Shown in pieces: positions 30,001 through 32,168 of a stretch of DNA of 32,168 nucleotides. The stretch lies in the UHGV virus genome UHGV-0322174, one strand, 5' to 3'. The stretch is from a virus. Numbering within the stretch: position 1 is the stretch's first letter; each line of letters opens with the position of its first letter. Made by a program: the position numbers.

Positions 30001-32168
30001 GGCATTCGTTCCTGAACCTGGTCGAGGATGCCAACGGCGCGGTTGAAAACGCTCTGCGTCTTTCTGCCTATAAACACGCCCGTGATGCCGGTTTGTCACG
30101 CCAGCAGGCGGCGTCTCTTGCCAAAAACATGACGGTGAACTTTAACCGTCGTGGTGAGCAGGGGATGCTGATGAACTCGCTGTACATGTTTGCCAACGCC
30201 AGCATTCAGGGGACCGCAAACCTGGTGAGAACGCTCGGACATCTTAATGGCGACGGGCCGTTACTGGAGCGCCTTCGCTGGAAGAATCTCAATGTACCGC
30301 AGAAAATCGTGCTTGCAGCTGTGGGAGCGGGTTATCTGCTTGGCTCGCTTAACCGCAGTGTGGCGGGTGAGGATGATGACGGGGTTAACTGGTACGACAA
30401 AGTACCGTCTCATGTGAAAGAGCGTAACCTCGTCATCATGAAATCGATGTTCGGGGGCAAGGCCGGTGAGTACTGGAGTATTCCTCTGCCTTACGGGTAC
30501 AACGTGTTCTTCCTGCTTGGTCATACAGCTGAAGGTGTGGCAGCGGGCGACCTGACTGCTTCACGTGCTGCCGGTAATGTTGTCGGCGGTATCCTGGGGG
30601 CATTCAGCCCGATCGGCAGCGAGACGTCGGAAACGTTGTCGGGGGCATTGCTGAAAAACGCAGCACCGACCATTCTGCGTCCGTTTGCGAACCTTGCCAT
30701 GAATGAAAACTTCATGGGGGCGCAGATTTACCAGGAGAACATGCCGTTTGGTACACCAAAACCTGACAGCCAGCTGGGAAGACGTTCAACGCCAGAAGCG
30801 TACAAGGCGTTTGCATCCTGGCTGAATGCGTTCTCAGGTGGCAGCCAGTATCGTCCCGGCGCGGTGGATATCACACCGGAATCGCTGAAATTCTGGATTG
30901 ACTATATCTCCGGAGGGACAGGGCGCTTCATTTCCAAAACCACGGATGCGGCGGTGAAATCGCTGAATGGTATTGATATACCGGAACAGCAGGTGCCCTT
31001 CCTGGGGAAAATTTCGGGTGAGGTGATGCCGTATGCAGACCAGCAGAAGATGTACGACCGGATGACAGAGGTTGCGCAGTATCACGCAGAGCTGAAGAGT
31101 CTGACCGGTGCAGAAAGAACGGCGTTCATTGACGAGAACAACGGAAAATTGTTGATGAACGGGCTTATGCAGGATACCCGGAAGAGACTGAAGGATTTGC
31201 GCAAACAGCGCGATGCCATTTATGCCGACAGTTCTCTCAGTCTGGCGCAGCAGGCGGCGATGGTGAAATCGGTAGAGCGGGATATGAAGGTTGCCGTGGA
31301 TCGGTTTAACCGCGAGTACAACAAAAAAGTGGGAGTGGATTAACAGAAATGGCCCCGTACGGAAGTGCGGGGCTGATTAAGAAATAAACACACATTAACC
31401 TGTAATAACCGGAGCTATTAACATATAGTCAGAAAGAGTATTTCATGTGAGACAGAGAGCCGATTTATGTTTAATGAAGAAAAAGTTGCGCAAATGGCAG
31501 CGTATTTGCTGAAAAAGCATGGCGGATCTATGCGTTTCATTAAGCTGATGAAGCTGATGTATCTCTCTGACCGCAAAGCAATGGAGTCTTTAACCGGGAA
31601 GGGGAGAGGTTTGAATGCTCCCCCACAATTCCCCGGCATCAAATCTCCATGCAGGTGAACTATTTTACCCCCAGCGGCAAATCGCAAAAACAATCAGTGC
31701 GATCGAAATGGCAGCCACTACAATTGCAAATGCTTCAGGCTAGGTCATTGGCGTACCTCCTTCGGCGGTTCTGGTAGCGGCATCCAGTGGGTTACTTCTT
31801 TGAGATGCAGGTCTTCGCCATCACCGTCATCCCAAGTGGGATTGCCATCATTAAACCAGTCGCCATATACGCCGACCTGAGTGTTGGGGATGCTTGGTGG
31901 GTAGTTGTTTTTAAAGTCAGCTGCTAACACATAGTATTGTCGCTCTCCCATTTCTGGCATTCGATCACTACAGCTTATCCAACCATCCGGAGTTACCGGA
32001 ACTGGCGGAACGGCTGTTTGCTCTCGAACGTCATTAGTCGCTATCGGTTCTGCTGCCAACTGACTGGCATATTTGTTAATGGTAACGATAAGCTCTTGCT
32101 CAGCCTCATCCAGACAATCACCGATACCTCGCCTGTCACCGTCAAAATCATCGAAATCGGCACGAATC

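Follow-up and report, generated by a model that had tools for sequence, protein, structure and literature searches.

Antitoxins of the PanA type (Panacea/DUF4065) form toxin-antitoxin (TA) pairs with MazF/PemK-like toxins that have been validated experimentally, and these PanAT systems are found in temperate phages, as the same work describes (Kurata et al. 2022, PMC8832971). The locus considered here is located at the right edge of the virus genome UHGV-0322174, a stretch of 32,168 nucleotides (nt) that was analyzed at its full length (the window), and consists of a plus-strand open reading frame (ORF) of 63 amino acids (aa) at 31467-31658, with its stop codon at 31656-31658, which follows the giant last gene of the late operon and converges with a DUF551-domain gene. 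This ORF very probably carries a deletion-born stub of a panA gene, lying at a junction within one prophage of the 933W type. The intact relatives of the locus share with the described PanAT systems a two-gene overlapping operon with a predicted MazF-fold toxin; the window, in contrast, keeps codons 1-40 of the antitoxin gene only, without a domain match or a toxin gene, and the partner family of the relatives (phrog_19071) also differs in that it fits no MazF/PemK sequence model and is assigned by predicted fold only. The finding is an ordinary one, of a kind already known, with a family of small ORFs on the opposite strand as its only mildly new item; it corrects an annotation, from a frameshifted gene to a deletion remnant, and carries little weight for biology at large.

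The preliminary description of this DNA had attributed a Panacea-like N-terminus to the 63-aa ORF, and in this it was right. Residues 1-40 match intact PanA in tblastn (PhiR5_2, E = 3.8e-20; Yersinia phage YeP2, E = 1.3e-16; a Klebsiella phage, E = 1.6e-16), and protein alignment gives the ORF 43-68% identity to these three proteins. Its N-terminal homology to bona fide PF13274 proteins covers residues 1-40 only, and about 14 residues of the Pfam-defined Panacea domain are left in the stub. A Pfam scan of the 63-aa ORF alone returned no family even at E <= 1, SocA_Panacea (PF13274; gathering cut-off, 25.7 bits) included, and intact orthologues reach 70.7 bits (the PhiR5_2-type gene, E = 2.4e-19) and 95.3 bits with the same model; the Panacea assignment of the stub therefore rests on its homology to intact orthologues. 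Among PHROG families, the ORF matches phrog_3658, which is composed of such stubs, and more weakly phrog_1281, the intact family of around 195 aa (E = 1.1e-4). The remainder of panA has no match anywhere in the 32-kb window.

In PhiR5_2 a near-intact gene occupies the syntenic position, and the window shares with this phage 95.8% nucleotide identity over 31300-31587, homology breaking at 31587. On the other side of the break, 48 nt (31590-31637) align to 5081-5120 of the PhiR5_2 region read, just downstream of the panA stop and of a stub of the partner gene, with a Smith-Waterman score of 30 that none of 2000 shuffles reached (13.0 +/- 2.1). Since the homology resumes in DNA that lies downstream of the genes in PhiR5_2, the lesion of the window allele is a deletion, of about 468 bp when measured against a PhiR5_2-like state. 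The last 22 codons of the 63-aa ORF are read-through into a diverged, formerly non-coding element. The 75 bp that follow the junction on its right side do not occur outside this context among 50,697 phage records and 5426 Escherichia coli genomes, their sole relative being the diverged element downstream of the operon in PhiR5_2. The imperfect hairpin in this segment was also considered as a structured RNA or terminator and rejected: its fold is no better than that of shuffled sequences (z = 0.28 and -0.77; both strands) and it has no T-run.

The junction segment is present in 43 of 5426 complete E. coli genomes, in single copy in each; among the matches listed, all lie under the same short annotated ORF, and they include O104:H4 outbreak strains. 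An identical junction is found in the phages POCJ13 and 75/02 Stx. A sequencing artefact, which had been raised as a possible cause of the broken frame, is excluded by this distribution. Dead stubs of this kind would also account for RefSeq entries from Stx-type prophages, those of the O104:H4 outbreak lineage among them, such as a 'hypothetical protein' of 63 aa and a 'Panacea domain-containing protein' of 66 aa. Within the stub, the 9-bp unit AAGCTGATG is present once in PhiR5_2, twice in the window and three times in cM8a, and the match to POCJ13 is 9 bp shorter (860 vs 869 bp), which fits one copy of the unit; in distant PanA proteins that are intact, the length ('LKLMKLLYL') corresponds to two copies. 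This copy-number variation among otherwise near-identical prophages looks like replication slippage inside the stub. Taken as a whole, the 63-aa ORF is an accidental chimera that lacks both the Panacea domain and a partner and is most likely without function.

The relatives show a fuller module at this position. Near-full-length panA is present at the same site after the giant gene in PhiR5_2 and in 18 complete E. coli genomes. A panA fragment of any kind is found in around 176 E. coli genomes. An intact pair, composed of PanA (185-187 aa) and then a 135-aa gene, with an overlap of 4 nt where coordinates were read, is carried by Yersinia phage YeP2, by Klebsiella phage ST13-OXA48phi12.5 and by three prophage contigs (L020-L022), and in these contigs it is located between a giant LPD38/39 gene and the prophage end. 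The 135-aa partner belongs to the phrog_19071 family. Its AlphaFold model (pLDDT 90.2) has the SH3-like barrel of MazF/Kid/CcdB, and the top 49 Foldseek matches of this model are all MazF-type toxins, suggesting that the ancestral pair acted as toxin and antitoxin. The experimentally validated pairs of PanA with MazF/PemK-like toxins (PMC8832971) make the ancestral module a known kind of system.

Sequence comparison shows that 933W-like phages broke this module in at least four ways, of which the deletion in the window is one. Phage 933W itself (L0134-L0135-L0136-hokW-L0139; AF125520) has panA placed behind the giant gene, as in the window, and has in common with it the intergenic DNA upstream, the initial 82 nt of panA and a 27-codon small ORF that follows a leftward accessory gene. 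It differs in a separate 395-bp internal deletion, which joined those first 82 nt of panA to its last ~98 nt, and in that it retains a shortened partner (L0135), a BOF-family gene and hok/sok, with its small ORF intact. L0135 (62 aa, phrog_1925; 5327-5515 in the region read) corresponds in alignment to both terminal parts of the 135-aa partner, about 73 central residues of which are missing from it (PHROG link, E = 1.9e-5), and seems to have arisen from the predicted MazF-fold toxin by an in-frame internal deletion; a literature search on L0135 found nothing. Both L0135 and phrog_19071 are readable as predicted MazF-fold toxins, or remnants of them, paired with PanA. Neither the 135-aa partner nor L0135 has a match anywhere in the window, and no toxin gene adjoins the stub. 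PhiR5_2 and its E. coli relatives have a TAA at codon 9 of panA and one 9-bp unit fewer, and they keep about six native codons of the partner, and in strain S1-CAM-02-A an IS3 element is inserted in panA. In none of the states seen is the partner in better shape than the antitoxin, which fits the expectation that loss of a toxin has to precede loss of its antitoxin.

The following history can be proposed. The locus downstream of the giant gene would once have held a type II TA operon encoding a PanA antitoxin and a 135-aa toxin with a MazF/CcdB fold. In the lineage of the window, an illegitimate deletion would have removed everything past codon 40 of panA and joined the stub to a non-coding element originally located downstream of the operon, the outcome being a chimeric ORF of 63 aa devoid of both Panacea domain and partner. 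The next feature, on the other strand, would be a conserved membrane micro-protein of 27 aa, the last gene of a leftward operon and coupled to the DUF551 gene, that was killed here by an amber codon. Several points weigh against this reconstruction. The Foldseek E-values for the partner are modest (4e-3 and above); by sequence, the Klebsiella copy of the partner has no Pfam match, the PemK_toxin and CcdB models included, and both copies of the partner searched are without a match in NCBIfam, PADLOC or PDB sequences, its role as a toxin being deduced from predicted fold and gene order. The toxin-first order of decay comes from only three states, and a 63-aa peptide keeping the first 40 residues of PanA could still be made. 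In addition, what is said of attR and of the full DUF551 gene is taken from near-identical relatives, the window ending at 32168.

The preliminary description had suspected in the 63-aa ORF a Panacea gene truncated by a frameshift and plausibly continued, up to 31776, in the -1 frame. Such a break would come from a real indel of 1 nt or from a sequencing error. There is indeed a plus-strand ORF at 31649-31777 that overlaps the end of the 63-aa ORF, but it has no Pfam match, the stretch 31665-31748 is the antisense of the conserved small ORF, and the junction is identical in the 43 complete genomes mentioned above. When three intact PanA proteins were compared with 31200-32168 in six frames (tblastn, word size 2, E up to 100), residues 1-40 alone were matched, nothing appeared past residue 40-48, and all other matches were noise (E >= 0.2). 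The frameshift is refuted because PanA has no match past the stub in any frame, and we leave it practically no probability; alignment to intact DUF4065 genes, which had been expected to locate the frameshift, gives instead a homology that ends at 31587 and that no frame continues. An antisense ORF of 91 aa, searched against Pfam as a further candidate together with the -1-frame ORF, gave no meaningful match either. A different alternative is that the 63-aa ORF is a selected mini-protein, for example a decoy that binds a toxin or a protease adaptor through the N-terminal helix of PanA. All 933W-like phages examined keep at least the first 27 codons and the 123-nt upstream region at 96-98% identity, and the ORF is annotated as a protein in RefSeq and has its own PHROG (phrog_3658); recent common ancestry, however, explains the high identity, the few Panacea-domain residues left give no domain match, the C-terminal 22 residues derive from a non-coding element, and the tail varies by lineage (31 aa in 933W; 60, 63 or 66 aa elsewhere, through slippage of the 9-bp unit), with no cognate toxin left in the window. 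We regard a selected mini-protein as improbable, and an accidental ORF left by the deletion as the better account.

Another possibility is that this prophage ends where the orientation changes, and that host DNA or a second prophage directly adjoins it. In phage records, DUF551 and Ea22 genes are usually located near int/xis (for example, 5.6 kb from the record start in Ss-VASD and 2 kb in Stx2a_1447), and the sequence of the window ends at 32168, but the relatives argue in the opposite direction. In 2009C-3133, which together with AST198 and cM8a is 98.7-100% identical over the last 869 bases of the window, DUF551 fragments are followed without interruption by an Ea22-like gene, TraR/DksA, Ant and a 5' fragment of ynfG that adjoins ynfF, and some 61 kb further left the integrase adjoins the 3' part of ynfG, so that the prophage is one element of about 61 kb; the right end is the same in AST198 and cM8a. 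Phage 933W has the same layout, its giant gene being followed by mostly leftward accessory genes (L0136, hokW, L0139, L0140, a TraR/DksA gene and an Ant-like gene) up to the annotated attR core. None of the att repeats, tRNA genes or integrase for which the preliminary description proposed to look lies at the feature: in the closest complete genomes ynfG is interrupted at both prophage ends, of which the right one is located about 3.6 kb past the window and the left one carries the integrase, and no tRNA gene was found in the window or in the relative's prophage region scanned. An exact repeat of >=10 nt that could serve as att core was not found between both prophage ends of 2009C-3133; a core of around 7 nt, like the one annotated in 933W, is plausible as judged by eye, not established. 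A second prophage or host DNA beginning here is, on this evidence, highly improbable. The part of the preliminary description that placed here the end of a late operon and the start of an accessory region stands; the part that suggested an adjacent prophage does not. Because the DUF551/Ea22/TraR/Ant genes of the relatives sit in the same prophage as the integrase, the right edge reads as an internal module boundary, where the late operon (rightward) and the accessory genes (leftward) of one and the same prophage meet.

Features at the right edge of the window (positions in the 32,168-nt stretch)
Feature	Coordinates	Strand	Basis
panA (Panacea/DUF4065 antitoxin) 5' remnant, codons 1-40, pseudogene stub	31467..31587	+	Nucleotide and protein homology
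Two tandem copies of AAGCTGATG, encoding KLMKLM	31542..31559	+	Alignments
Right side of the deletion junction: imperfect hairpin (31594-31636), last 22 codons and stop of the 63-aa ORF	31588..31662	none	
Giant last gene of the late operon, 2783 aa	22992..31343	+	ORF call; annotation in matching records
GC-rich inverted repeat GCCCCG-N10-CGGGGC	31352..31373	+	Read from the sequence, 9 nt past the giant-gene stop
Small hydrophobic ORF of 27 codons, single-transmembrane-like, inactivated	31665..31748	-	Alignment to intact phage copies
DUF551-domain (EaA-like) gene, 3' 140 codons	31745..32168, runs off the window	-	Pfam PF04448

Around this boundary, the abrupt change in gene content and orientation that had been noticed after the giant ORF is borne out by the end of this ORF (stop codon at 31341-31343), by the minus-strand gene that follows, and by GC and AT skews that flip sign past ~31600, as expected for a strand switch. 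The giant gene is a homologue of L0134 of 933W, annotated as an LPD38/LPD5 'polyvalent' protein. GC content is down to 0.42-0.46 across 31300-31750, and the stretch 31300-31548, which includes the GC-rich inverted repeat, is 98% identical among 933W-like phages. This repeat is without a T-run and is not among the results of the terminator scan, which were weak sites only, all within coding sequence; it may be the terminator hairpin of the late operon despite the missing T-run.

Over its last 869 bases, the window shares 98.7% identity with Shigella phage POCJ13 and 99.7-100% with prophages in the chromosomes of several E. coli strains, and parts of this segment also match 933W, VT2-Sakai and many Stx-converting phages. 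In the lambda map, the leftward pL-distal genes beyond att are carried to the distal end of the prophage, where they run towards the terminus of the late operon. The present region resembles the lambda b region and its 'ea' genes in that accessory genes transcribed leftward meet the terminus of the late operon in convergent orientation and are split from pL in the prophage by integration at att, and it differs from lambda itself in gene content. By these comparisons the prophage is a lambdoid one of the 933W type (Sepvirinae), and its accessory region the counterpart of the lambda b region. The prophage of AST198, at 10682-12044 of the region read, is 100% identical to the window over the last 869 bases, yet its giant gene is cut to the last ~330 codons; it is a deleted derivative, not the source of the window.

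The convergent gene of the minus strand had been described as DUF551-like and running off the window, and both attributes are correct. It matches Pfam PF04448 with 74 bits (cut-off, 22; E = 1.8e-20) over model positions 1-68 of 68, with the domain at ~31760-31984, and the ORF that ends at 31745 has no stop up to 32167. Its orthologue in POCJ13 and Ss-VASD is an EaA-like protein of 308-309 aa, and PGAP annotates the upstream part of the gene as pseudogene fragments in those E. coli genomes that most resemble the window. DUF551 has been described as a portable domain, of unknown function, of the mosaic Ea22-type proteins of Stx phages (PMC10834534), and the gene of the window shares with them this portable domain, which occurs in proteins of the Ea22/EaA type; it is a normal, widely shared lambdoid accessory gene.

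The small ORF between the DUF551 gene and the stub reads M-T-stop-PEAFAIVVAAISIALIVFAICRWG-stop over 31748-31665. Its start ATG overlaps the TGA stop of the DUF551 gene (ATGA), with a GGAGG upstream. Codon 3 is changed from TGG to TAG (31740-31742), the same TAG being present in cM8a, 2009C-3133 and POCJ13, and position 11 is a valine, where 10/10 intact copies have a glycine. As judged from these differences, the copy of the window would be a pseudogene. Ten other phage copies that were read (933W, Stx2a_1447, vB_EcoM-606R7, PhiR49_2, vB_EcoS-666R9, YYZ-2008, PhiR12_1, PhiR5_1, Av-05 and an 'Actinobacillus' phage) are intact over all 27 codons, with W3 invariant, and follow the pattern M-[TNS]-W-P-[ED]-A...[YF]-S-x-[CF]-R-W-[GR] (for example, MTWPEAF...ICRWG). 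Among the window and seven intact copies, variable sites are distributed as 10/8/20 over the three codon positions, with most at third positions, and homology among the copies stops at the stop codon in four different downstream contexts.

By tblastn, the small ORF is present in 93 phage records, and it was not annotated in the ten records inspected. No credible family was found for it in NCBIfam, which gave only a sub-threshold match to KdpF, or in PHROG, where the match was phrog_4612 at E = 0.02, and a literature search for its sequence found nothing. We lean, by a small measure, towards a wider interpretation with two parts. The 27-codon ORFs would be a genuine family of single-pass membrane micro-proteins that has escaped annotation, whose gene comes last in the leftward accessory operon of many lambdoid phages, with its translation coupled to that of the gene before it, and which was freshly inactivated here; and a PanA-MazF-fold TA module would have decayed repeatedly, toxin first, at the site behind the giant gene. 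As a conserved membrane ORF of lambdoid phages, the 27-aa ORF merits annotation.

The copy of 933W is located at 6423-6506 (minus strand) of the region read. In PP818812.1 ('Actinobacillus phage vB_Apl-pPE4') there are a hok gene and a small ORF whose protein is identical to the vB_EcoM-606R7 copy, which is odd for such a host and points to a wrong host assignment or to a recent acquisition of the DNA. An intact copy with 81.5% aa identity to the tblastn query is carried by phage Av-05 (KM190144.1; Vequintavirinae, 121 kb), and since this phage is virulent, the small ORF is not confined to lambdoid temperate phages.
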